From IMG/VR virus record IMGVR_UViG_3300017766_003306, positions 5,587 through 69,586 of that record: a stretch of DNA of 64,000 nucleotides; one strand, written 5' to 3'. The position numbers were made by a program, and so were the translations under genes. Positions within the stretch are counted from its first letter, which is position 1, and each line of letters opens with the position of its first letter. The notes beneath the pieces are model-generated. The model was given only the letters and a program-made list of their open reading frames with translations, had not been told where the DNA came from and did no database searches. Positions 5,365-46,891 of this stretch are shown one piece after another. Origin of the DNA: a virus. Lineage: Duplodnaviria; Heunggongvirae; Uroviricota; Caudoviricetes.

Positions 5365-5828
5365 TTATGTACTACAAAATAACATACAACGGAGTAGAAG
5401 AACGGTTTAACTCTGTTGATAGTGCAAGTAAACGAGGCGAAGAATTGCTGAAACAGAAAGATGTAAAGTCTATTAGGGTTGAAGCTTTTGTGCATAATAG
5501 ACCAGACGCTAAGCCTGTTAGATACTACGATATGGAAAAGCCGTAAGGTAATCTCTATCGTCGTATACTTTATAGGATTAAGAGAGGGTGTAAACGTAGT
5601 GAACGTACATGAAAATAACCTTAGACTTCTCTATGAGAGCAATAAAGACAGTCCCAAACTTAGTAGGGAAGATCTTGAAGAGGCTATAAAAAGGCACGAC
5701 GAGGAAGAAGATCGGGACAGAGAAAGGACTAATTTTCAATTCTTTGCGATTATTCTAGGTTTCCCCCTTTTGGTCTTATTTGTATTTGTTATTCTAGTAT
5801 ATATACACTAGCCCCAACATAAAACACT

Positions 5829-34710: not shown

Positions 34711-36852
34711 TTATATATGGGGTTGCTTTGGAGCTTGTTTAGGTAATGGAGTAACAGCATCTTTAGCGGGAGTGTTTGCGGGGTTCATGTTTGGATCTGT
34801 AGCTTCTGTAGGAGTATTACGTTCTACTGGTTTATTTATTGGTGTAGTACCGTAAGGCTCGGGGAAGGCTTGGAAGTCCATATCTATAGCCGTGTTCAAA
34901 GCTTTTACTGCCATATTAGGGCTTACGCCCCCCATTCTATATGCTGTCTCAAAAATAGACATAAGCTCAATCTTGTCAAAGTGATTAAACGCATTAAACA
35001 CGATCTTACAAGTTCTATCTTTCAGCCCTATATGCTTGAGAAGTACGTTGTTTATAAAGTCTTCTAAAGATCTTCTGTAGGGTTTAAAGATTTGATCTTC
35101 TGCCATCTGAATAGCTGAGTGGCTAGTAGCACGGTTATAATCTGCTGACTGACCTAACAAGATAGGGGGAAGTCTGAAAGCTTGTCTAATTTGAGTCTCA
35201 CATTTTTTAACGTAATCCCCAAATAACAACTCTTTACGCTCAACATCATTAAGCTTTACGAACTCTACTTTACCATTTCTTGCAGGGGCATTGCCTTCAA
35301 GCTCTTTAGTTGTGATCCCCATCTGTGAGCGGGTTACAGCTCTTAGCATGAGTATCTTACTTGGCTTAGCATGATTTCCGCCTCTATTAGACATTTGCCG
35401 TCTTAATTGCTCAATGTCCCCTCTGCTATATTTCATGTCAGACATTAAGATTGCTAAACTGGGGATTAAGTTTTCTTTAAATGTCTCTAAGTTTATAGAC
35501 TCAGCTTCAATCTGACCTATAATACTAGCCATTTGGTTTGCCCATATAGGCTCCCCATAGCTCGTAGAATCGTCGATGTCTCTGTAGTGATACAATTCTT
35601 CTGCAATGTCTTTTTTGTTTGTTGTCGGTAGTCCAGAGTACTTGTCTATAATCTCAGGACTTCCCCATTCTACGAAGAACTGTTTATGTCTATAGACACT
35701 ATCAGAGCTAGTCGCTTGCTGATTCTTACCGCCCATTTTATAATACTCAGGCTTCTCCCATAAGTACCGTTTGTAAGATTTTTCTCTTTTAATCTTTCTT
35801 ACAGACCCGCCCCTGATTATCTCATCCTCTACACGCATGATAGATTCTTCTTTGAGTACTCTAACTTGGGTACAAGGAACTCTATACGCTTCGAGTAATA
35901 TCTTATTCTTTGATGAATCTGTAAAGTATCTAAACCCGACAAAGAACTCGTTAAAGCTCTGATAATCACATACAAGCTCTTCTAAGAACTCAGAAAACGA
36001 TACGTTGTAGCTTATGTTTGCTAAGTATTCTTCGAGTATGTCTACTTCTTTTTTTACATTAGGGGGTAAGTCTACAGTAGGGTCTACGTCTCGTTTCTGT
36101 ATAGATACACCTCCCCCTACAATGTTAGATACCATAGCGTCGATACAGGGTCTAAGGGAGGGGCTAGACTTTATAAGGGTCTGCAGTTTCTTGGGGTCGT
36201 AAGTTCTTTTTCTTAAGCCATGCGTTGCTGTCAGTACTCCGTCATAGTCTAAGTCAGTCCACTTCTCGCTATCTAAGTCGTAGTATTTAGATATATCAGA
36301 TTTTAATTTAGTGTCAGGGGTCTCTACTTTTTGCTTTATATTTATTCTATTTAAGATTTTTGAATACTCATCGTCGATCTTATTCAGTAATCTAGGAATA
36401 GCTAATTGCTTGATCGACTCTGATTTTGGAGTAGTGTCGTCAACCTTACTAGACTGTAGAACCTCTTTGACAGCTTTAGATAATTCGTCTTTTCGCCACT
36501 GTGCGATAGTCTCAGCAGGAAGTAATCTACTCACGGTGACTTGAACTTCTACGCTAGGCTCAATTTCGTTACTATTTTCATCTAAGATTGGATCTGTGTA
36601 TAAGATCTCTGATCTATGAACCCTACCCCTGTCTAGTAGGGGAGTATTGTCCCCTTCAATAGATTGACTGTCGTCTAAGTATTCTTCCTCAGTCAAAGCT
36701 CTATAATTACCTATTACCCGCTCTTGCTCGGCTACTATGTCTTGTAGCTCTTCTATATGGGCTTGAGTAGTAGTGTTGATTTCTACGGTTTGTGAAGAGT
36801 TAGGCTTATTCTTCTTGCGGTTTATTTTCATTTTCAGTATGTTCCGATTCAT
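34711..36852 (-). CDS. putative portal / head morphogenesis protein
   Basis: 713 aa, in the terminase-proximal position; Pro/Thr-rich low-complexity C-terminal tail; no motif-level proof. Confidence 0.35.
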   Translation of the reverse strand: MNRNILKMKINRKKNKPNSSQTVEINTTTQAHIEELQDIVAEQERVIGNYRALTEEEYLDDSQSIEGDNTPLLDRGRVHRSEILYTDPILDENSNEIEPSVEVQVTVSRLLPAETIAQWRKDELSKAVKEVLQSSKVDDTTPKSESIKQLAIPRLLNKIDDEYSKILNRINIKQKVETPDTKLKSDISKYYDLDSEKWTDLDYDGVLTATHGLRKRTYDPKKLQTLIKSSPSLRPCIDAMVSNIVGGGVSIQKRDVDPTVDLPPNVKKEVDILEEYLANISYNVSFSEFLEELVCDYQSFNEFFVGFRYFTDSSKNKILLEAYRVPCTQVRVLKEESIMRVEDEIIRGGSVRKIKREKSYKRYLWEKPEYYKMGGKNQQATSSDSVYRHKQFFVEWGSPEIIDKYSGLPTTNKKDIAEELYHYRDIDDSTSYGEPIWANQMASIIGQIEAESINLETFKENLIPSLAILMSDMKYSRGDIEQLRRQMSNRGGNHAKPSKILMLRAVTRSQMGITTKELEGNAPARNGKVEFVKLNDVERKELLFGDYVKKCETQIRQAFRLPPILLGQSADYNRATSHSAIQMAEDQIFKPYRRSLEDFINNVLLKHIGLKDRTCKIVFNAFNHFDKIELMSIFETAYRMGGVSPNMAVKALNTAIDMDFQAFPEPYGTTPINKPVERNTPTEATDPNMNPANTPAKDAVTPLPKQAPKQPHI

Positions 36853-37759
36853 TATCTGATTGCATTTTCTTTATTCTATCACGATATAATTCTTTATCTG
36901 AGATTCGTAAAGCTTTTATCTCTTTGTGTGCCTCTACAGCTTCTTCTAGTAGTATATCTAAATCAACGTCTGAATAGTCTTCGGGATTATCGCTTATTTC
37001 AGAAATTAGGATAGAAGAATCATAAGTATTGCTTGTCCCTATAGCTAGATAATGTACTGCCCTCCAAACAGCTAACGCAGTAAAGTGGGAGATTGCAAGC
37101 TCTTTAGAGGAGCAATAGCTTAGAGCGACTTCGTATTTTGGCATATAGTGAGATCTAGGCATAGAACACATATACACACCCGATTCAGAGGGATTATAGC
37201 AAGATTTATTTGTAAGCATAGAGGGGTTTATATGTGATCTTATATTGTCATAGACTGCATTGAATAGCATACTGCATTCTAGCTCTACTTGTTTAGGTCT
37301 CTTTGCTTGCTTAGACTCTCTATCGCATAGGGGTATTATAGAGTAGGGTATCTCATATAATTGGTAAAACTTTTCCCACTTCTCGGGAAAGGAATGTAAT
37401 ATGCTTTGCCTTGTTAGTGGGTGTATTCCATCAAGAAATCGTATAAGGGTTGCCCGCTCTTGTCTGTTTAGTTTTAACTGGGTGAGCAAGTGAAGATAAT
37501 ATAAGCACCAGTATATTTCTTCTCTTGACACCCCCGACATGAGTGTAGAGTTCTTCATAATCTTACAAAAGTGATTAGTTGCCGTGTCGAAAGTTTTATC
37601 TAATGCCGTTACATTCTTCTGACCTCGCCTCTGAGTGTGTAGTTGTCTAGCTACTAGCAAAGACTCTACAGCACACGCAAAGTAAGTATCTCTTCCAAGC
37701 ATTTGATATATAAGTTGTCCCCTAAAATAGTGAGCATATTTATTATTCGACTTTGACAT
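36806..37759 (-). CDS. hypothetical protein (first gene after the deazaguanine operon; overlaps portal start)
   Basis: 317-aa ORF. Confidence 0.4.
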   Translation of the reverse strand: MSKSNNKYAHYFRGQLIYQMLGRDTYFACAVESLLVARQLHTQRRGQKNVTALDKTFDTATNHFCKIMKNSTLMSGVSREEIYWCLYYLHLLTQLKLNRQERATLIRFLDGIHPLTRQSILHSFPEKWEKFYQLYEIPYSIIPLCDRESKQAKRPKQVELECSMLFNAVYDNIRSHINPSMLTNKSCYNPSESGVYMCSMPRSHYMPKYEVALSYCSSKELAISHFTALAVWRAVHYLAIGTSNTYDSSILISEISDNPEDYSDVDLDILLEEAVEAHKEIKALRISDKELYRDRIKKMQSDNESEHTENENKPQEE

Positions 37760-37766
37760 ATATACA

Positions 37767-38480
37767 CTAACCCTGCATTATTTTATATCCAGTCCCAAAG
37801 CACTCGTTCAAGAGTGCGTACCTGTCCCCCAGCTCCGTTAATTTAGACATCCCTAAGTAAACATGAGAGACACTCTTTTTCTTTATGGATCCTAAAAACA
37901 TAGTAATCGTTCGTATGTCTTCTGCATTATTTGGGTGAAATATAAACGAGTCTGCCCGTTTTAAGATTCTCACATTGTACGCTTTTAGAGTATTTTCTAG
38001 GTTTGCCTTGTCTATAGGATCTTCTAAGATGCTCGGATATGTACATATAGATAATCTAGTCGTGTTTGTTTCTAATAATCTAAATAGCGACTCTGTGAGC
38101 GTTTCTTTCCCCGAGAATGAGATGTTTATCAGAAACTTAGATCTTTCTGTGAATGTAAATAATAGTTTGTAGACATAATCTAAATTAGTTGGGGGTACGT
38201 CCCAAACAATATCTATATGTGCTAACCCTCTACCGTATCGACCGCACCACTCTTTTATGTCTTCGATTAAGTATTCGATTGATGTCTCGGGTATAAGTAG
38301 AGAGTTATTGAGCTGTCTATCTATTAACGAGTTGAAGAACCCTCCCCCATAGTCCTCTTTGTTGATCACGGAGTAATCTATTATTTTATCCGCTAACTCT
38401 GAGAAGGAAAGCTGTAAGCAGGGTGTCCCTATAAATGTCGGTACTGAGGTGAAGTCTCTTTTTACGTTAGTTAAGTACAT
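37767..38480 (-). CDS. TGT/DpdA-family-like protein (second, divergent paralog)
   Basis: 237 aa; N-terminal VPTFIGT resembles TGT PxFMPVGT; DYGGGFF resembles TGT DSGGFQ substrate motif. Confidence 0.35.
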   Translation of the reverse strand: MYLTNVKRDFTSVPTFIGTPCLQLSFSELADKIIDYSVINKEDYGGGFFNSLIDRQLNNSLLIPETSIEYLIEDIKEWCGRYGRGLAHIDIVWDVPPTNLDYVYKLLFTFTERSKFLINISFSGKETLTESLFRLLETNTTRLSICTYPSILEDPIDKANLENTLKAYNVRILKRADSFIFHPNNAEDIRTITMFLGSIKKKSVSHVYLGMSKLTELGDRYALLNECFGTGYKIMQG

Positions 38481-39267
38481 CGAGATTTGAATCTCCTAGA
38501 TCTTCGTTTGCTGATTGGTAATGTGCATAAGTTGCGTTTATCTTGGCTATGAAATCTTCTAGTTTGAACTTCCTTGTTCTTGCAGTTTCCCGATCTAGCG
38601 ACGCTACAGTATCGTTATACAAGCCTTCATCAAAAGTATATAGTGTCAGTGTGTATTTTTTAGAGGCTGTTTGTGTTTCGGAGTTTGCTGTAGTGAAGTC
38701 GCTTAAATCTGTATGATTTTCAGAAATTAAAGAATCCTCTAAATCAGATGAATCATAAGATAAATCTGAACCCTCAAGCATATCTAAATCTAACATATCA
38801 TAGGGTAGTATATCTGATAAGTATTCAGACGAATTAGTCTGTAGTAGCTCAGTTAGCAAAGAGTCTAGCTTAGAGCTGTCGTTATTAAAGCGTATTTCGT
38901 TTGTCTGTAATGCTACTTTTTTAGCTGTAGCTAGATCAACTTCCCCTAAATTACATACGGGAGCTTCTGTATGCCCTAATTCTTGCAAAGCTACTAATCT
39001 ATGATTACCATTAACTACTTCAAGTTTTAATTTACCCTTAGAATCTTTTACTTCACGAACGATTAAGTTCTGAACACACCCATTTTCTTCTATGCTCTTT
39101 TTAAGCTGAGTCATATATTTTTCATTGTCTTCTTTGTAGTTCCATTCAGCCTTAATTAACTGATCTAAAGGTACATAAGCGTATCCGTTAGCTACTCTAC
39201 CCTCTGTTAAGCTCATCTGCACTGCCCTTTCCGACATTATTTTTCCATTGACCCTCTTACTTCGCAT
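38467..39267 (-). CDS. ParB-like nuclease domain protein (paralog 2)
   Basis: 266 aa; AEWNYKEDNEKYM...LEVVNGNHRLVALQELGH...ALQTNEIRFNNDSSKLDSLL, paralogous to ORF 43176..43952. Confidence 0.6.
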   Translation of the reverse strand: MRSKRVNGKIMSERAVQMSLTEGRVANGYAYVPLDQLIKAEWNYKEDNEKYMTQLKKSIEENGCVQNLIVREVKDSKGKLKLEVVNGNHRLVALQELGHTEAPVCNLGEVDLATAKKVALQTNEIRFNNDSSKLDSLLTELLQTNSSEYLSDILPYDMLDLDMLEGSDLSYDSSDLEDSLISENHTDLSDFTTANSETQTASKKYTLTLYTFDEGLYNDTVASLDRETARTRKFKLEDFIAKINATYAHYQSANEDLGDSNLDVLN

Positions 39268-39617
39268 ATCTCTCCGTATAGTGAGCTTTTATAAGCCCTA
39301 GATAACTGACTATCGACTAGCTTATCTGCTTGATGATATAGCTGTTTGAGGACTCTGATCTTTGCTAGCTTTGTTAAGCTCTCTTTGTACTCTTTTAGCT
39401 TTTTTCTATCGTCGTATAAGTTAGAGACTATTCTGGAGACCGATATTCCAATCCCTGTGATTGTTACTTTAGATGATTCTCTCAACTTCTTAATCACTCT
39501 GCATTGTATGTAGTAGTGAGGGACTCGTCTTAGTTTCGCTACTGCATAAGAACTTGGAGTGAGTGAGTTGTACACCTCTTCTTCGGAGTCAAATGTTTGC
39601 ATCTTTTCTATACCCAA
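39237..39617 (-). CDS. hypothetical basic protein
   Basis: 126-aa ORF inside the operon. Confidence 0.35.
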   Translation of the reverse strand: MGIEKMQTFDSEEEVYNSLTPSSYAVAKLRRVPHYYIQCRVIKKLRESSKVTITGIGISVSRIVSNLYDDRKKLKEYKESLTKLAKIRVLKQLYHQADKLVDSQLSRAYKSSLYGEICEVRGSMEK

Positions 39618-39657
39618 TAATTATACCAACGCCCATATAAAAAGTCAAGGGGTCAAG

Positions 39658-40422
39658 TTAATATATATTTATATATTTGTGAGTTTGTATAGATACTTTA
39701 TACCCTTTTTTCTTAGCATAGTCTATGCACAGATTTGTAGCCTTCTCTGATTGTGAGATGGGTTGTAGCCATATTGGAGTTTCGTGTCTAAATCTATGTG
39801 TAGCTAAAAACTCTTCTAAGTTCTCTAAATCCCTAAGAGACCCTACAGGCATTTTAATCTCATCTATTAAATTACACATAGAAGGATTAAAGGACTTTCC
39901 GCCCGCCATTCCTATTTTCGGAGAGAGGGTTATAAAGCAGTTTTGTCTTAGATACGCATACGTTTTATCTAACAGCTTAGACGTTCCGCTTGTCTCTATT
40001 TGTATTCTAGGTCTATAAGTAGCAGATCTACAGCTCTTTATTCCCTCTATAATGCTGATTAAAGAGTCTTGATGCTGAGGATCTTCTTGTAGAGGCTCAC
40101 CGCCTGTTATTACAAAGTGCGATATTTTAGATGTATCTGAGTTTGCTACTCTACCTGCTAAGTCTTTCCCAAACTTATTCTCATACTGCCACTCTACTTG
40201 TATAGCTAACTTCTCTCTATTCAGTACGCTTAGTAGATCTTCATAGGTATTCACTGAGATGATATTTTGAGGCTGGGTATTGCTATCCCAAACATCCCAA
40301 CTAAACTTAGTGTCACAAAAACTACATCCTACCCCACACCCTTGAGTTCTAATGAATATCGCAGGGGTTCCCGTAAATGTAGCTTCGCCTTGTATCGTTT
40401 CAAATATCTCTGTTAAGTACAT
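39658..40422 (-). CDS. queE: 7-carboxy-7-deazaguanine synthase (radical SAM)
   Basis: 254 aa; N-terminal FETIQGEATFTGTPAIFIRTQGCGVGCSFCDTK matches the QueE Cx14CxxC-type cluster region. Confidence 0.75.
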   Translation of the reverse strand: MYLTEIFETIQGEATFTGTPAIFIRTQGCGVGCSFCDTKFSWDVWDSNTQPQNIISVNTYEDLLSVLNREKLAIQVEWQYENKFGKDLAGRVANSDTSKISHFVITGGEPLQEDPQHQDSLISIIEGIKSCRSATYRPRIQIETSGTSKLLDKTYAYLRQNCFITLSPKIGMAGGKSFNPSMCNLIDEIKMPVGSLRDLENLEEFLATHRFRHETPIWLQPISQSEKATNLCIDYAKKKGYKVSIQTHKYINIY

Positions 40423-40424
40423 TA

Positions 40425-40889
40425 TTATTTTCTCCCTAGAAATATCGCTGAATTAGAGCCATGCTCAAATACTTCTACTGAATCTAAGCGGACGTTTGTT
40501 TTATATTTATCATTGTATTTGGGTAAAATTACTGTGTTTATATGGTCGTAGGCATATTCTGCAAAAGCTTCACACCCTACTTTAGGGAAAATTACTACTT
40601 TAGCTAAACCTAAGTTTTCTAACTCTAATATCTTCCCTAGCTTAGTATCAGACTTAGAGACTGCTAATGTGTGATCGAAAGTCTCTTTTAAGAATGCTTT
40701 AACGTCCTTTAACTCCCCAAAAGAAATTACCCAATTTCTATGATCCAGCGTATCGGACGTGAATGTAATCTTAAATCCTAAAGCGTATCCGTGTAATAAG
40801 CTACAGTGATCGGGGGATGCTTTTTCTTGTCTGAAGCAACAAGAAAAGCCGAGATCGTTTCCGTATGTTTTAACAACTGCGTAAGACAT
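40425..40889 (-). CDS. queD: 6-carboxy-5,6,7,8-tetrahydropterin synthase (PTPS family)
   Basis: 154 aa; DHCSLLHGYALGF (CxxxHGH-type Zn motif) and ETFDHTLAV (DHH-like). Confidence 0.65.
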   Translation of the reverse strand: MSYAVVKTYGNDLGFSCCFRQEKASPDHCSLLHGYALGFKITFTSDTLDHRNWVISFGELKDVKAFLKETFDHTLAVSKSDTKLGKILELENLGLAKVVIFPKVGCEAFAEYAYDHINTVILPKYNDKYKTNVRLDSVEVFEHGSNSAIFLGRK

Positions 40890-40902
40890 ATTATGCTTGT
40901 TC

Positions 40903-41955
40903 CTATTTTTTTTGAGTATTGCTTATTGCGAGAAGTAGGTCATTCGTAAATTGACCCCACCCACTTATTTTACTATTTTGTTTCAGTAGATCAGGCAACT
41001 GTCCCCAGTTATCTAGCTCTATCAAAGACCCTAACCCCTTACCTCTATGCTTCTTCAAGACTTTATAGCCTTTATCTTCTTTACAGATGACTACAGTTTT
41101 ACATAAAGCTAATGCTTCTAAGCACACCATGCCGTAAGTCTCTTGTACGCTAGGAAGAACTACGATGTCTATAGATCTAAGCCATGCAAAGTATTCAGGT
41201 CTATTCATCATGTGCATATTATCTTCCCCGCTTCTAGGGAGTTTTATCTCTAAATTGTAGCTGTCTTTAAGCTCATGTATTACTGTAGAGCCTTTCTCAT
41301 CACACTGTCGAGATACATACCCAACGACTAAATCGGGGGACTTTCCTGTTCCACAATAATTATCTATAACATCTACGGGAAACGGAATCACTTTAGCTTT
41401 CTCAATCATAGCACTTGCTGACGATAAGCCTATAGCCTTCTCTAAGTACCTGTAACACATATCTCTATGCTCTAAAGTAGCGAATATGGGTATTACATTT
41501 TCTCTAATGATGTCATAGACTTGACCTAAAGCTAACGATCTAGCCTCTTCGCTCTTTGTCAAAGCATCGTTTTCATCCCATAATCCTGAATGATATAGCA
41601 CATAATGAGTAGGTAAGTTATTGGGCATCCCCACTGCCCGCCGTAAGTAAAGATCATCTATTGATCCTATAAGCGAATATAGCCCATCTAAGTGTATGAA
41701 ATTATCTGTGCTTGTGTATGCTGAACCCGTACCTTGTTTTACGTCTAGTAGCTCATGTAAGCACTCTAACTTATGGTTTATGTATTCTTCTATAGGCAAA
41801 AAAGCATCCCCCGCAATTAAGGGTTTATGGTACTCCGCTTTTGCCCCTAAAGGAGTGAAGTTTTCTTTTATTGTTTCTGATCCATGAACATAAGAGAACC
41901 AGTCAGAAGTGTACCTAGAATCTACAGGTAAAATCGGTATGATGTAATTTACCAT
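40903..41955 (-). CDS. GT4-family (GT-B fold) glycosyltransferase
   Basis: 350 aa; C-terminal IDIVVLPSVQETYGMVCLEALALCKTVVIC with EX7E motif. Confidence 0.65.
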   Translation of the reverse strand: MVNYIIPILPVDSRYTSDWFSYVHGSETIKENFTPLGAKAEYHKPLIAGDAFLPIEEYINHKLECLHELLDVKQGTGSAYTSTDNFIHLDGLYSLIGSIDDLYLRRAVGMPNNLPTHYVLYHSGLWDENDALTKSEEARSLALGQVYDIIRENVIPIFATLEHRDMCYRYLEKAIGLSSASAMIEKAKVIPFPVDVIDNYCGTGKSPDLVVGYVSRQCDEKGSTVIHELKDSYNLEIKLPRSGEDNMHMMNRPEYFAWLRSIDIVVLPSVQETYGMVCLEALALCKTVVICKEDKGYKVLKKHRGKGLGSLIELDNWGQLPDLLKQNSKISGWGQFTNDLLLAISNTQKK

Positions 41956-41985
41956 AAGTTTAGTCCTTTTTATGCTTTTAGTATA

Positions 41986-42360
41986 CTATGTGTAATCTCT
42001 CGTGAATGTTGTCTCTGAACCACATTCTCCATCTTCTGATACTTCGATCTTAAATATAGAATAACCTACATCACTCAGAGAGTTCTTCAAGAATCTAGCG
42101 ATAGACTCACAAGACTCTTCTCTTGGCTCATCAAAGTATCCGTTCATAGCCAGTTTGCAATCTTTTAGTAATGTATGAAACTCTACTTGCCTATTAGAGT
42201 GAGATACTCTAGCCCAAACCTTAAACTTAAATAAGTGTCTGTGGTACTGATCTAAGTACGCTACTTCGTGGGGAGCATTCTCCCATCTATGAAATCCCTC
42301 TAGGCTGAATGTAACCCAAATAGTTTCAGACTCGACATCACTTTTAAATTGATTTATCAT
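41986..42360 (-). CDS. PTPS-like T-fold protein (QueD paralog lacking the catalytic Cys)
   Basis: 124 aa; TFSLEGFHRW / HRHLFKFKVW / EFHTLLKDCK align positionally with QueD FxFxAAHRL / HGHxFxVxL / DFAELK blocks. Confidence 0.35.
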   Translation of the reverse strand: MINQFKSDVESETIWVTFSLEGFHRWENAPHEVAYLDQYHRHLFKFKVWARVSHSNRQVEFHTLLKDCKLAMNGYFDEPREESCESIARFLKNSLSDVGYSIFKIEVSEDGECGSETTFTRDYT

Positions 42361-42361
42361 C

Positions 42362-43195
42362 TTATCGTCCTCCTCCGCCCATTCTCTCTACCCTCCGTGC
42401 GTGTACTGCATTAACATAGTTTTCGTAAGCTTTTATAACCCGTGTATTGTACTTGATCCTAGTCGTAAATCCGAGAGGGCATCTGTCTACGCCTGACTCC
42501 CTACGCTCTGTGGGTTGACACTGTATACCCCTTACTGGATCTATCCTTAACTTGTTCCCAAAAGCCGTGTACTGAGCTAAGCTAGAAGCGTCTACGCTAT
42601 CGGGGAAGCATCTTATAATCAAGTCGTGCCTAGAACATCCTAGAATGTGTATCTTAGTCTCTTCAGGTATGAGATTTCTAATTGTTTTGTAGATCTTAAT
42701 AAAGTCTTCTCTGCCTTCTTTCGTTAGCATAGGTAAGCCTAAAGACGATATAGAGATGTAATTGTCTGAAGCTTCTGTAATTTCTTGGATTAAGCTTGCA
42801 GACATATCAGGTCTAATTATTCCCGCAACGGGTACACCGTTTGCTTTCATTCGGGCTGTATTTTCTAACCACTGAGAATATCTGCCTTGATCTACAGTCA
42901 TTACGACGTTGTAGTAGTCTTTGTTTCTATGGTAGTAGTCGCACAAGTCGTCAACCTCTACCATCTTCCCATGCTTTCTAGCTGTGAATACCCCCGAGTC
43001 TAGCATAAATCTAAAGTCAAACCCTTCAGGTATATTAGAGCTTTCAAGTATTTTTAAAATGTAGGGGTCTACCCCCGATACGGCATCTTTTCTGTTCCAG
43101 TACGAAAGCAGGTTGCTTATTCCTGCTTCTAAGCAGTGAGTTATTACATTTGGATCCCAACTGCTTGAATAGTATTTAAACATTGATAGTCTCAT
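42362..43195 (-). CDS. dpdA: DpdA-like DNA-guanine transglycosylase (TGT family)
   Basis: 277 aa; FMLDSGVFTARKHG (TGT DSGGFQ-type motif), Cys/His cluster in C-terminal third; embedded among preQ0-pathway genes. Confidence 0.6.
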   Translation of the reverse strand: MRLSMFKYYSSSWDPNVITHCLEAGISNLLSYWNRKDAVSGVDPYILKILESSNIPEGFDFRFMLDSGVFTARKHGKMVEVDDLCDYYHRNKDYYNVVMTVDQGRYSQWLENTARMKANGVPVAGIIRPDMSASLIQEITEASDNYISISSLGLPMLTKEGREDFIKIYKTIRNLIPEETKIHILGCSRHDLIIRCFPDSVDASSLAQYTAFGNKLRIDPVRGIQCQPTERRESGVDRCPLGFTTRIKYNTRVIKAYENYVNAVHARRVERMGGGGR

Positions 43196-43952
43196 CTAAC
43201 TTTTCTGAGTTTTCTACACTCTCTGTAGATACCGATTGTTCGGGATTGTAGTCTTGGTGAGCTTTTAAAACTCGTAGCAAGTCATCCATACTGAAAGTAA
43301 TTTTTCCGACGTTTTTCTGTATGCCTAATGCGTGAAATACGACTCTTATCTCTTCTAAAGTAAATGACTCTTCTGTGTATAGAGATAGGTTATATTGAGA
43401 AACGGAAGGGGTATAGTTTTCAGTTTCGTAAGTCTTGTCTACGTCTTGGGACTCGTCGAATAAATACGCATCGTCTACAGATATATCTAAAGAAACGTCT
43501 GATAGCATTTCCATAACAGAATCGAGTTCTTGCTGTTTAAATGGCAAGAAAGACAACGTGTCCGCTGTACCCTCTTCACTGCTTAAAATATCCATAAGTA
43601 AGCTGTCGAGCTTAGATCTATCAGTAGCAAACCTAGTCTCATTAGTTGAGATGGCTATTTGTTTTGCTTTTTCGAGAGAGATTTTGCCTAAGTTATAACA
43701 GTGTACTTTGTTATACCCTAAAGTAGTGAATGCTTCTAGCCTATGATTACCGTTTACGACTTCGTATAAGCCATCATCAAGCTCTCGAATAATGATCGAC
43801 TCAACTTGACCATTGTTTTTGATATTAGATACAAGCTTTTTCATAAGCTGTGCATCCTGTTTTTTGTAGTTCCATTCAGCTGATACTAATTTCTCTGGGT
43901 TAATATCTGCCCACCCAATAGGTAATGATGCTGTCATTATATAGCTCCCCAC
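43176..43952 (-). CDS. ParB-like nuclease domain protein (paralog 1, DpdB-like context)
   Basis: 258 aa; LYEVVNGNHRLEAF... ParB/Srx N-domain signature; directly upstream of dpdA-like gene. Confidence 0.6.
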   Translation of the reverse strand: MGSYIMTASLPIGWADINPEKLVSAEWNYKKQDAQLMKKLVSNIKNNGQVESIIIRELDDGLYEVVNGNHRLEAFTTLGYNKVHCYNLGKISLEKAKQIAISTNETRFATDRSKLDSLLMDILSSEEGTADTLSFLPFKQQELDSVMEMLSDVSLDISVDDAYLFDESQDVDKTYETENYTPSVSQYNLSLYTEESFTLEEIRVVFHALGIQKNVGKITFSMDDLLRVLKAHQDYNPEQSVSTESVENSEKLDETINV

Positions 43953-43966
43953 TATGTTTATATTTT

Positions 43967-44599
43967 CTACGACCGTATACTTGTTAAGAACTCGTCTTTA
44001 AGCCCTTGATTTTCTTTTACTTCGTCTGATACTTTACTTGTGACTGTAGTGCTACTCGTATTGTTTACGCCCCTCCAACTCATGCAAGTATGTATAGCTT
44101 CGATATGTACGATCAAGGCGGAAGGATTCAGTATTTGGATAAGGTACTCAAAGATCTGAGAAGTAAGCTCTTCCTGTATTTGAGGTCTACGAGCATAGTA
44201 ATCGACTATACGAGCAAACTTAGATAGCCCTAATGTATTTTCTTTTGGGATGTACCCGATATGACACTTACCTAAAATAGGGGCGAAGTGATGGCTACAC
44301 ATAGATTTAAGTTCTATGTTCTTTACAACGACTAACTGATCTGCTTTCCCTACGTTTGGGAACACAGTTATTTTAGGGGGGTCTGTAAATCTTCCTGCAC
44401 ACACTTCATGTAAGTACATTTTAGACATACGCTTAGCTGTTTCATTAGTGTTATGATCTTGTGCTGTGTCTATTTCTAGCACGTCCAGCACTCTCTGAAA
44501 CGCTGATTCAAGCTCTCTTAGCTTATACCCTGTTTCGCTCTGTTTTAGCACTCGTAGATGCTCATTTGATTTATTTGGCATTCTGAGGTTCCTTCGCAA
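43967..44599 (-). CDS. folE: GTP cyclohydrolase I
   Basis: 210 aa; SMCSHHFAPILGKCHIGYIP...LGLSKFARIVDYYARRPQIQEELT matches FolE catalytic core (CEHH..GK.HIAYIP). Confidence 0.8.
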   Translation of the reverse strand: MRRNLRMPNKSNEHLRVLKQSETGYKLRELESAFQRVLDVLEIDTAQDHNTNETAKRMSKMYLHEVCAGRFTDPPKITVFPNVGKADQLVVVKNIELKSMCSHHFAPILGKCHIGYIPKENTLGLSKFARIVDYYARRPQIQEELTSQIFEYLIQILNPSALIVHIEAIHTCMSWRGVNNTSSTTVTSKVSDEVKENQGLKDEFLTSIRS

Positions 44600-44849
44600 C
44601 TAAAGGCGTAAAATACTCTAACATCCCAAAAACAGCTATTGAGTGCAAGTCTGCGGGGTCTTTACCCATCTGTTCATATAGTTTAGGGGATAGTCGGGAT
44701 GCGTTTGCTTGGTTTATTTTTATTGATAGTTCAGGAGGGAGTCGTTTAAACTTGCTAGCCATAGCTATAGCTTTTGTATAGTCGCCCACTAGCATCGCTT
44801 CTCTTATTTTTTCTGTCTTAGTTGTTTGTAGCATCAACGAATCTTTCAA
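44571..44849 (-). CDS. hypothetical protein
   Basis: 92-aa ORF between terL and folE. Confidence 0.35.
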   Translation of the reverse strand: MKDSLMLQTTKTEKIREAMLVGDYTKAIAMASKFKRLPPELSIKINQANASRLSPKLYEQMGKDPADLHSIAVFGMLEYFTPLVAKEPQNAK

Positions 44850-44929
44850 AGTTATATGAATGAGTTTATATACTTAAGTTTAGCACATTGTGTATAAAAA
44901 GTAAATAGTTTTTACAATGATTTGAACAA

Positions 44930-46891
44930 CTAAACAAACTCTCCGTCTTCCTCAAAATCGTCATCTTCATAATCTTCATAGTCCGCATTTTCTTCCATTC
45001 TAGCTTTAGCGAACGGGTTAGCTAATATCATCATAGCCTCCCTACTCTGTAATGCGTTTGAGACTGCTCCACACACTGCGTCGGCTAAATCCTTTGATCC
45101 GCTAGGTAAGTGGTCTATCTTTACTTTAGATCCCGCTGTAAGCTCTACAAGCTGTGTAAGCTCTTTTAGAAGTATCTCATTGTAGGGTAGACGTACACGC
45201 CCTTCATATATAGCAGTTCTCAAGTTTTGATAGTGTACTGGGTCTCTGTCTACAGATAAAGTCTCTGCTATAATCCCTTCGCCTCTTAAGATAGTCAACG
45301 ATTCAAGACTTTGATAACTATCATAAGTTACTTTTCCTATCGTTAAGCCTTGATCTCGTTTTAGTTTCGTGATTAGTTTTCTAGGCTTAGAAATATCTAC
45401 AGGGTATACTTGTGAAGGCTCTATGCTGTACACATAATCGACCGTTATTATCGGCTTCATCTCTCCGCCTACACCCTTAACCCCCGAAACGTGTGCCATT
45501 GCTTGAGCTGTTCTATCCCCTGTATGGGATAAGTCAGTATGAAAGTATCTAGGTAATTGTTTGTTAGGGATTTCACCGCAGATGACAGGGTAGTGATGCC
45601 CCCCTTCTGTGTAGACTTGAACGACATAGTTATCTACTTCTGAAAGTTTAGGGAGCGTGTAGTCTATGCACTCGTATAGACGACTAGGAAGAGTTAGGTA
45701 AGACGAACTTCCCGCTGTCGTTATCCCCGCGTGATCTCGTTGTGCTGTAAGGGGATTTGTTTCAAATGAAAGTCTGTATTCGTTAGGAATATCTACGACG
45801 ATAGAATCTTTAACCCCGTCTTCATCATCTTCTAGTATCTTGGGTTCTACTGTTTTGCTACCGCATTGAAATCTAAATGTACCTGTCGTAAATAGATTTT
45901 TAGGGGCGACTTCCCATTTTGTTTTTCGTCTATATCGCCAAACTAAGTTCGACTTTGTAGCCTTTAAAGAATTGTGTACCCCCTCAATAAAGTCCTCTTC
46001 ATAGTTGGGTGAAGAGCATAAATCTATTCCCCCAAAAGATAAGGAGTCTGTAATAAATCGAGACTCATATCGTTTTCTCATAGTGTCGAATAATTTATCC
46101 GCGTGGTTAAATCGTCTTTCTCCATGATCCGCCCGTCTTGATTCTTCTACAACATCAAAGAAGTTCGCCTCATCTATAACGCCGTAAACGATAGCTAAAG
46201 ACAATAAAGCACTCGGTTCTAGTGAGTGTGCCATCATTAGCTCGATATTGTTAGAAAGCTGAATACTCGTTGTCTTTTCTTTTTTATATGTCACTGTCTC
46301 TTTGAAGAAGGGGATCTCTTTAAATAGTTGGTAAATGGGTTTATAGATTTGGGTCTCAGTAATGGAAGGTTTAGCACTGATCAAATAAATGAGCATGGGA
46401 AAGTTAGAGTCTAACCCTTTATAGATAAAGTGAGGCGTATTAAAACAACATAATGTAGTTAAGATGAATAAGGCTTTAGTTACGACACAGTAAGACTTAC
46501 CCGTACCTAATGTACTGTTATTGATGTCGATAGCGGGCATAGGAACGCCTGACATAATATGCGGGCAAGAGATGGCAATATCTTTTCTAACTTCTTCCCA
46601 AAAGTTAAGTCTTCCCCCTAAATACTCGTCGTTGTCTATAAACTCGTCTATTGTGGGAGGTATTCTATTTGCTAGCATTAGCATCTTAAAGTAGTCGGCA
46701 TTATCGTGATCGAGTAGTTGCTTAAACGCATATTCACAATATCTAGCAGTCTGTATGTTTCCGTAAGCTTCATTAAAGTTTATTTGACGCTCTAATTCAT
46801 TTAGCATCTTTATTCTATTAGCTTCTGTAGAGTTACGCACAGTGCTTAACAAAAGATCTAAGTCTTTTGAGAATCTATTGTTTTTCCTCAC
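44930..46891 (-). CDS. terL: terminase large subunit
   Basis: 653 aa; Walker A STLGTGKSY, Walker B VIDEANFF, C-terminal nuclease region with SKDLADAV; acidic tail. Confidence 0.8.
   Translation of the reverse strand: MRKNNRFSKDLDLLLSTVRNSTEANRIKMLNELERQINFNEAYGNIQTARYCEYAFKQLLDHDNADYFKMLMLANRIPPTIDEFIDNDEYLGGRLNFWEEVRKDIAISCPHIMSGVPMPAIDINNSTLGTGKSYCVVTKALFILTTLCCFNTPHFIYKGLDSNFPMLIYLISAKPSITETQIYKPIYQLFKEIPFFKETVTYKKEKTTSIQLSNNIELMMAHSLEPSALLSLAIVYGVIDEANFFDVVEESRRADHGERRFNHADKLFDTMRKRYESRFITDSLSFGGIDLCSSPNYEEDFIEGVHNSLKATKSNLVWRYRRKTKWEVAPKNLFTTGTFRFQCGSKTVEPKILEDDEDGVKDSIVVDIPNEYRLSFETNPLTAQRDHAGITTAGSSSYLTLPSRLYECIDYTLPKLSEVDNYVVQVYTEGGHHYPVICGEIPNKQLPRYFHTDLSHTGDRTAQAMAHVSGVKGVGGEMKPIITVDYVYSIEPSQVYPVDISKPRKLITKLKRDQGLTIGKVTYDSYQSLESLTILRGEGIIAETLSVDRDPVHYQNLRTAIYEGRVRLPYNEILLKELTQLVELTAGSKVKIDHLPSGSKDLADAVCGAVSNALQSREAMMILANPFAKARMEENADYEDYEDDDFEEDGEFV

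Follow-up and report, generated by a model that had tools for sequence, protein, structure and literature searches.

Replacement of guanine by 7-deazaguanine derivatives, of which eight are known, is a main means by which phages hide the guanines of their DNA from restriction enzymes and Cas nucleases. The chemistry that converts GTP to 7-carboxy-7-deazaguanine (CDG) is established for the FolE, QueD, and QueE families, and in bacterial Dpd systems, DpdB is required together with DpdA. A branch of the phage pathways has been described in which FolE, QueD, QueE, and DpdA occur without QueC and are accompanied by DpdL, a QueD relative with LxxxHRHxF instead of the CxxxHGH motif (Cui et al., 2023; PMC10516641). 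DpdL has been proposed to act as a CDG decarboxylase that yields 7-deazaguanine (DG). This is a prediction, and expression in Escherichia coli of DpdL and DpdA from ACP17, one of two phages whose dpdL was expressed, yielded no 2'-deoxy-7-deazaguanine (dDG), for which the authors allow that other enzymes may be needed (Cui et al., 2023). In phage phiST DNA, deoxyguanosine is fully (100%) replaced by dDG, and no dCDG, the 2'-deoxynucleoside of CDG, was detected (Cui et al., 2023). Here, we describe a gene cluster related to these systems in a 64,000-nucleotide stretch of DNA (positions 5,587 to 69,586; hereafter, the window) of IMG/VR virus record IMGVR_UViG_3300017766_003306 (Caudoviricetes). 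The source contig comprises 101,459 bp, of which ~37 kb lies outside the window. We consider it likely that the cluster encodes a DpdL-type replacement of guanine by a distinct member of the DpdA superfamily, and its genes include a glycosyltransferase of a family that adjoins DpdL in most DpdL clusters.

The cluster extends from position 44599 down to 36806 and comprises 11 open reading frames (ORFs) that are all on the minus strand, run in one direction, and overlap or are separated by gaps of no more than 40 bases; all 11 are present where a preliminary description of the window had placed them. That description had assigned three of the ORFs to FolE, QueD, and QueE, and these assignments are supported by hidden Markov models (HMMs) from Pfam, PHROGs, and NCBIfam. 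FolE (43967-44599), the GTP cyclohydrolase I that would catalyze the first step from GTP, matched Pfam GTP_cyclohydroI (2.5e-54), phrog_2197 (5.6e-59), and the NCBIfam subfamily NF006826 (167.6 bits; cut-off 162). QueD (40425-40889), a 6-carboxytetrahydropterin synthase, matched Pfam PTPS (1.2e-14) and phrog_2389 (7.6e-37). The radical-SAM CDG synthase QueE (39658-40422) matched phrog_2076 (9.1e-39) and NCBIfam TIGR04322 (9.9e-53), in the latter case with 178.8 bits, which is under the cut-off of 200. QueD carries the motif CSLLHGY; compared with the canonical CxxxHGH, Tyr takes the place of the second His, a zinc ligand. The same CxxxHGY variant is found in phiST, ACP17, and the Burkholderia phage BCSR5, and it is present in 13 of the 30 QueDs identified in DpdL loci, including that of phiST, whose pathway demonstrably works.

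The gene that defines the pathway is a 124-amino acid (aa) ORF (41986-42360), which the preliminary description had taken to be a PTPS-like protein without the catalytic Cys. The protein is indeed a T-fold relative of QueD, but it does not match Pfam PTPS, and its motif and homology identify it as DpdL. It reads LDQYHRHLF, so that Leu occupies the position of the catalytic Cys, and thereby fits the LxxxHRHxF signature; L...HRH.F was found in 86 of 87 members of the DpdL family. A tblastn search with the protein matched gp125 of ACP17 (38.8% identity, E 4e-13) and 12 other phage records. Identities to the ACP17, BCSR5, and Xanthomonas phage BUDD proteins range from 39 to 44%, with 38 invariant columns in a four-sequence alignment, and every residue that is invariant in the DpdL family is kept in the window protein. 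An HMM built from 86 loci sequences recovered both the window protein (3.2e-43) and phiST CGPG_00067 (9.5e-33). Because the motif, the 39-44% identity, and an HMM that also finds the phiST protein agree, we conclude from sequence that the 124-aa ORF is DpdL.

To compare the cluster with others, 85 DpdL loci were compiled, which comprise the best 80 of more than 522 loci returned by a scan of IMG/VR with a DpdL alignment and five loci from cultured phages. The set includes some redundancy (ACP17 is present twice and a few loci are near-identical). ORFs in these loci were translated and grouped by phmmer, jackhmmer, and BLAST clustering. In two GT-free phages with a DpdA3-type transglycosylase (GT, glycosyltransferase; DpdA types are described below), Chryseobacterium phage MA9V-3 (L003:9440-10321) and Vibrio phage Bakedbeans (L006:6224-7375), the DpdL domain forms the C-terminal part of an annotated protein of 293 aa and 383 aa, respectively, and the N-terminal part has no Pfam match. 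P-loop kinase-like proteins adjoin DpdL in phiST (CGPG_00066; L088:46381-46860, AAA_18 9.4e-7) and BCSR5 (L004:7351-8277, AAA_28 5.1e-11); for the former, Cui et al. (2023) reported that other deazaguanine phages encode no homologue.

The preliminary description had noted that the window encodes no QueC, and this stands at the level of the motif, in that the QueC PP-loop SGGxDS was not found in any of the six frames of the window. Nor did scans of 30 ORFs of the window with Pfam, PHROGs, or NCBIfam identify a QueC. The combination of FolE, QueD, QueE, and DpdA without QueC thus holds across the entire window, and the earlier view of the cluster, as an operon for 7-deazaguanine modification of DNA whose chemistry goes no further than the CDG level, is upheld. 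The further proposal that the absence of QueC points to CDG or an unknown derivative as the inserted base is not upheld, since the second T-fold gene is DpdL, which marks a published QueC-less pathway (FolE, QueD, QueE, DpdL, and DpdA) in which QueC is expected to be absent. Consistent with this, none of the 85 loci encodes a canonical QueC at a distance of 10 kb or less from DpdL. Some GT-bearing DpdL clusters encode a PP-loop protein with SGGKDS (BUDD, L005:2891-3385; BCSR5, L004:8261-8908; and L015:11074-11676). These three proteins are unlike QueC in length and C-terminal motif, and the BUDD gene is annotated as a member of the PAPS reductase family.

Three TGT-like families accompany DpdL in the 85 loci. 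The first is the true DpdA3 family (~260-290 aa), which was identified in 14 loci and includes phiST CGPG_00065 (HMM 1.5e-30). The second is a family of large proteins (about 425-540 aa) that was found in 37 loci by BLAST clustering and in 41 by jackhmmer seeded with the BUDD protein. The BUDD member is annotated as a queuine tRNA-ribosyltransferase, gp123 of ACP17 occupies the equivalent position, and gp168 of the Pseudomonas phage PA5oct is matched by the large-DpdA profile (4.2e-182). The third family, for which we coin the name DpdA-S, comprises 18 members of ~300 aa in 17 loci and includes the window protein (42362-43195), a putative DNA guanine transglycosylase that was joined to it by reciprocal jackhmmer (E 1e-22 to 1e-67). 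One of these loci, L036, harbors a tandem duplication of DpdA-S. Conserved motifs of DpdA-S are LDSG, a central Asp, HxLG, and SxDSxxW; residues that are invariant among 17 sequences are D66 and G68 of LDSG, D102, H183, and S200-x-D202. The Asp/His/Asp motifs are those of the TGT superfamily. A comparison of the DpdA-S and phiST DpdA3 family profiles by hhalign gave a probability of 92% (E 5.9e-7, 191 columns), whereas the DpdA3 HMM matched phiST and nothing in the window. The window protein also matched phrog_887 (9.5e-10), but it reached no curated TGT or DpdA model above cut-off, including the PADLOC DpdA model (E 0.0042). The earlier 'dpdA-like' label therefore holds in the sense of phrog_887 and remote DpdA3 homology and does not extend to the Pfam TGT or NCBIfam DpdA models. 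Because the DpdA3 profile is matched at 92% without membership in the DpdA3 HMM, Pfam TGT, or NCBIfam DpdA families, DpdA-S is, judged by profile comparison, a member of the DpdA superfamily that forms its own subfamily and is remotely related to DpdA3.

ParB1 (43176-43952), the gene upstream of DpdA-S, encodes a ParB N-terminal domain with the motif NGNHR (Pfam ParB_N, 27.3 bits with a cut-off of 26.3; phrog_723, 2.6e-22), and its end overlaps the start of the DpdA-S gene. A second protein, ParB2 (38467-39267), has similar matches (ParB_N, 28.3 bits against the same cut-off; phrog_723, 4.3e-20), and its stop likewise overlaps the next start. The two are 40% identical (E 2e-34) and are thus paralogues. 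Two ParB-like genes, one of them paired with the DpdA-like enzyme, had been proposed for the cluster, and the domain matches together with the overlap bear this out. A ParB homologue was found directly beside DpdA-S in nine of the 17 DpdA-S loci and never in loci of the DpdA3 or large DpdA types. In NCBIfam, the ParB proteins matched generic ParB families best, and in PADLOC, their best matches were models of type II methyltransferases (MTase_II). ParB is not mentioned in connection with phage deazaguanine clusters in Hutinet 2019 or in Cui et al. (2023). By analogy with the bacterial DpdA/DpdB pair, ParB1 is probably an accessory partner of the DpdA-S transglycosylase.

Downstream of DpdL lies a gene (40903-41955) for a GT4-type glycosyltransferase, the presence of which had been predicted and is confirmed by a match to Pfam Glycos_transf_1 above its cut-off (30.3 bits; cut-off 26.4). 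A profile of the family matched the C-terminal domains of GT4 enzymes in PDB (5.7e-6), and the two Rossmann domains of the GT-B fold are present. The window GT is very divergent, with 14-20% identity to other members of the family, and a tblastn search against phages returned no match to it. Nonetheless, profiles seeded from the DpdL-adjacent genes of BUDD and ACP17 recaptured the window GT (5.7e-43 and 1.2e-52, respectively), and the protein keeps all seven family-invariant residues (R14, Y15, D90, D130, R216, K221, and E280).

The GT had been regarded as a peculiarity that sets the cluster apart from known ones. This is contradicted by the survey, in which the GT family was found in 57 of the 85 DpdL loci at a median distance to DpdL of 266 bp and usually in the order DpdL-GT-DpdA, as well as in cultured phages. 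A block of DpdL, GT4, and DpdA was identified in ACP17 (gp123-125), BUDD, Xanthomonas phage X1, BCSR5, Sinorhizobium phage Phosso, and BUCT-ZZ01, and in PA5oct (gp168-166) and ten of its relatives; this block is also present on the contig that encodes the nearest relative of the window GT. In PA5oct (L087, 222985-226130, gp168-gp166), the large DpdA-like protein, GT4, and DpdL are encoded in a row and are all annotated as hypothetical. PA5oct, a jumbo phage of P. aeruginosa, is reported to have a modified G whose identity is not given and to resist restriction at G-containing sites (2025 preprint). Among 185,579 bacterial and archaeal species genomes, only four DpdL loci were identified in bacteria, all on Methylobacterium contigs (L090-L093), and in each of the four a large-type DpdA is followed by DpdL-GT; phmmer searches with the window FolE, QueD, and QueE returned no match within 8 kb of these loci.

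The distribution of the GT differs with the type of transglycosylase. It accompanies the large type in 35 of 37 loci and DpdA-S in nine of 17, whereas it was found in none of the 14 loci with DpdA3 of the phiST type, the only type for which plain dDG has been measured. No match to the GT was found in the 50 kb of phiST that holds its cluster. In five loci that encode ParB and DpdA-S but no GT (L020, L021, L028, L036, and L055), there is a gene for a membrane protein belonging to Vut_1/YhhQ (Pfam 8.2e-7), a family whose bacterial representatives transport queuosine precursors. The GT and the Vut_1/YhhQ transporter look like alternatives in DpdA-S clusters. Additional genes intervene between DpdL and GT4 in some relatives, namely a GT2 glycosyltransferase (5.3e-11) in L085:3740-4306 and a radical-SAM/SPASM protein (SPASM 9.7e-17) in L043:10324-11349 and L007:10320-11300.

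Comparison with described systems places the cluster between several of them. The phiST system (FolE, QueD, QueE, DpdL, and DpdA3) shares with the window the same biosynthetic set without QueC, a DpdL found by the same HMM, and the QueD CxxxHGY variant. Its DpdA3 is a remote homologue of DpdA-S from a different subfamily, and unlike in the window, its cluster includes MazG and the P-loop kinase-like gene but no ParB and, across the 50 kb that hold it, no GT4. Moreover, the phiST product has been measured, whereas the window system is known here from its genes. The clusters of ACP17 (gp123-126), PA5oct, BUDD, X1, BCSR5, and Phosso resemble the window in having the GT4 family beside an orthologous DpdL (39-44% identity) with FolE, QueD, and QueE nearby, but they differ in encoding the large TGT-like enzyme, in lacking ParB, and in GTs that are only 14-20% identical to that of the window. 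Bacterial Dpd systems, which like the window system concern 7-deazaguanines in DNA, also have a TGT-superfamily gene beside a ParB-N protein with an xGxHR motif. However, the window proteins fail to match the equivalog models of DpdA and DpdB (DpdA, 15 bits against 200), and bacterial Dpd inserts preQ0 and has the partners DpdC-K, which the window does not encode. Sugars are known from other modified nucleosides: the glucosyl-hydroxymethylcytosine of T4 is made by alpha- and beta-glucosyltransferases, and QTMAN/GTDC1 is the eukaryotic queuosine mannosyltransferase. Apart from the fold, the window GT has nothing specific in common with these enzymes; the window system offers no evident hydroxymethyl or diol acceptor, and Pfam detected no QTMAN-type N-terminal domain in the window GT.

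Collectively, the cluster is best explained by a DpdL-type, QueC-independent modification of DNA with 7-deazaguanine in which the GT takes part, a scheme that we regard as fairly probable when all of its steps are taken together. In this scheme, FolE, QueD, and QueE would convert GTP to CDG, which the predicted decarboxylase DpdL would convert to 7-deazaguanine. DpdA-S, assisted by ParB1 as DpdA is by DpdB, would then swap guanine in the phage DNA for 7-deazaguanine after replication. GT4 may add a sugar to the deazapurine or to a precursor, in which case the final base would be more elaborate than plain dDG. The core of the scheme, deazaguanine replacement of the DpdL type by DpdA-S, is the part in which gene content gives us high confidence. 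A role for the GT in the same pathway is suggested by its synteny with DpdL and DpdA, which holds for the majority of DpdL clusters, and transfer of a sugar to the deazapurine or a precursor appears to be the most likely reading of this synteny, albeit a tentative one. Equally tentative is the broader possibility that the GT4 enzymes of DpdL/DpdA clusters place a sugar on a 7-deazapurine or an intermediate in a large group of phages with glycosylated 7-deazaguanine in their DNA, which in the window would proceed via a ParB-assisted DpdA-S. The 'possibly glycosylated deazapurine' of the preliminary description remains tentative, though better supported than before by the GT synteny, the absence of the GT from the phiST type, and the extra tailoring enzymes.

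The four genes downstream of QueE are less readily connected to this scheme. A 126-aa basic ORFan (39237-39617) matched nothing in Pfam, PHROGs, or NCBIfam and has no relative in the 85 DpdL loci. A 317-aa ORFan (36806-37759) had no PHROG, Pfam, or PADLOC match and no profile match in the 85 loci. Between them lie ParB2 and a 237-aa ORF (37767-38480) that had been described as a second TGT-like gene. We reject this assignment as unsupported and consider the gene an ORFan on the basis that no sequence or profile similarity was found: it had no match in Pfam, PHROGs, NCBIfam, or PADLOC, matched only itself among 1.84 billion representative proteins (HMMER), showed no BLASTP similarity to the DpdA-like protein, and was negative in tblastn. 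By hhalign, it aligned to the DpdA-S profile with a probability of 0.1% and did not match DpdA3, the large DpdA type, or 66 neighbourhood families. A single-sequence AlphaFold model (pLDDT 38.5) was too poor to judge the fold. The duplicated transglycosylase/ParB pairs that had been proposed are accordingly reduced to two ParB paralogues and one detectable transglycosylase. A sigma-70-like promoter match (39620-39648, minus strand; TTGACT-17-TATAAT with TG upstream) that agrees at 11 of 12 positions is located in the 40 bases that separate QueE from the 126-aa ORF. Because of this site, the downstream module may be transcribed separately, with the 126-aa ORF at the head of what could be a second transcription unit. 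The site carries little weight, given that the region contains 43 promoter-like sites versus 44.4 in shuffled sequence and thus shows no excess. We treat the downstream module as a lineage-specific addition that is tied to the system only through the paralogy of ParB2 with ParB1.

Several observations weigh against the scheme as a whole or against the involvement of the GT. DpdA-S is under the cut-offs of both Pfam TGT (16 bits versus 26.3; E 0.0066) and NCBIfam DpdA (15.2 bits versus 200), and its profile matches no solved structure by sequence. The ParB proteins have no DpdB match in NCBIfam or PADLOC (E up to 0.1). The similarity of the GT to characterized enzymes is that of a generic GT-B protein, the operon encodes no gene for nucleotide-sugar synthesis, and 7-deazaguanine has no hydroxyl that a GT4 enzyme would obviously glycosylate. 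Moreover, the chemistry of the modified base is known from the GT-free phiST type and not from GT-positive clusters, and about half of the DpdA-S loci (eight of 17) lack the GT. DpdL sequences show no separation between GT-positive and GT-negative clusters, with 51% identity between the groups versus 52-61% within them and no residue that is fixed differently. DpdL sequence was consequently rejected as a predictor of GT presence, and DpdL chemistry is probably alike with and without the GT. The lack of an acceptor group, the uniformity of DpdL, and the GT-less DpdA-S loci are what would be expected if the product were plain dDG as in phiST, with GT4 acting elsewhere (for instance, on a glycan, a pterin by-product, or a protein of the host or phage) or partnering the larger DpdA types without a catalytic function of its own. 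We consider this rather unlikely. It does not readily account for a DpdL-GT-DpdA order that is tight, often overlapping, and kept across very distant phages and Methylobacterium, nor for the extra tailoring enzymes in the same block of some relatives, and the invariance of the donor-site residues R216, K221, and E280 argues for an enzyme that is likely to be active.

A different product, CDG or an ester- or amide-linked derivative of it, would be inserted if the second T-fold protein were not a decarboxylase. Decarboxylation by DpdL is a prediction that E. coli expression did not confirm with dDG (Cui et al., 2023), dCDG is reported from DNA of the archaeal virus STSV-2, and a carboxylate would provide a handle for further decoration; yet phiST, with the same FolE/QueD/QueE/DpdL set, has dDG without detectable dCDG (Cui et al., 2023), and the window DpdL keeps all residues that are invariant in the family, which leaves this explanation very unlikely. 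Another product could also arise if queC or an amidotransferase were encoded on the ~37 kb of the contig that the 64-kb window does not cover or were borrowed from the host, given that many hosts encode QueC, in which case the DNA would contain ordinary dPreQ0, dADG, or dG+. DpdL has been reported only in QueC-less phages (Cui et al., 2023) and, as noted above, the 85 surveyed loci have no canonical QueC in the 10 kb around DpdL, and we view this as the least probable of the explanations considered here. The number of exchange enzymes is a separate matter. ParB2 and the 237-aa protein could represent a second, highly diverged ParB/transglycosylase pair that provides two base-exchange specificities, as might be suggested by the 40% identity of the ParB paralogues, by an overlap with the downstream gene that is the same in both, by the tandem DpdA-S in L036, and by the alternating helices and strands in the low-confidence model of the 237-aa protein. 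However, joint duplication should have left the enzyme about as recognizable as the ParB pair, whereas the 237-aa protein shows no sequence or profile resemblance to any of the three DpdL-associated DpdA families and is an ORFan among all representatives searched, and the promoter-like site divides its module from the biosynthetic genes. A second pair is therefore improbable. The DpdL-type scheme with DpdA-S and an associated GT is accordingly retained as the best explanation.

The whole operon sits between a putative large terminase gene and a portal gene (36806-46891), which is an unusual site for a metabolic module. The portal protein (34711-36852, minus strand; 713 aa), which marks the downstream boundary, matched phrog_12 (8.2e-19), in support of its earlier assignment. 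The upstream boundary is the putative terL (44930-46891, minus strand; 653 aa), which is 30-33% identical to proteins from 360 phage records. Among the matches listed, that of Rhizobium phage RHph_I4 is annotated as terminase large subunit, in agreement with the earlier assignment, and the others are annotated as hypothetical or minor tail proteins; searches of Pfam, PHROG, and PDB returned no match. The best relative of terL is from Aeromonas phage HJ05 (33% identity), with which nothing else of the region is shared. The start of FolE is overlapped by a 92-aa ORF (44571-44849, minus strand) that matched phrog_18237 (unknown function; 3e-5), and the operon may begin with this gene. No close relative of this phage was detected: a megablast search with the cluster returned no match in 50,697 phage records, nor did IMG/VR when scanned with the DpdA-like protein and terL, and the DpdA-like protein matched only itself among 5.8 billion proteins.

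These results indicate that the QueC-less DpdL branch of DNA modification is more varied than published, with at least three transglycosylase families used with DpdL. The window system combines the known DpdL route with an unclassified DpdA subfamily, a ParB-like protein paired with it in the manner of bacterial Dpd, and a DpdL-associated GT4. The cluster is of value chiefly as a pointer to a variant of the pathway that is linked to the GT, is widespread, and has no description in the literature searched; PA5oct is among the GT-bearing majority. The term 'glycosyl' is absent from the texts of Cui et al. (2023) and Hutinet 2019, and no glycosylated deazaguanines were found in the literature searched. 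A GT that is conserved in most DpdL clusters may explain why DpdL and DpdA alone failed to produce dDG in E. coli. If the GT acts on the deazapurine, glycosylated 7-deazaguanine would be present in the DNA of the phage described here, of dozens of uncultured phages, and of ACP17, PA5oct, BUDD, BCSR5, and Phosso.

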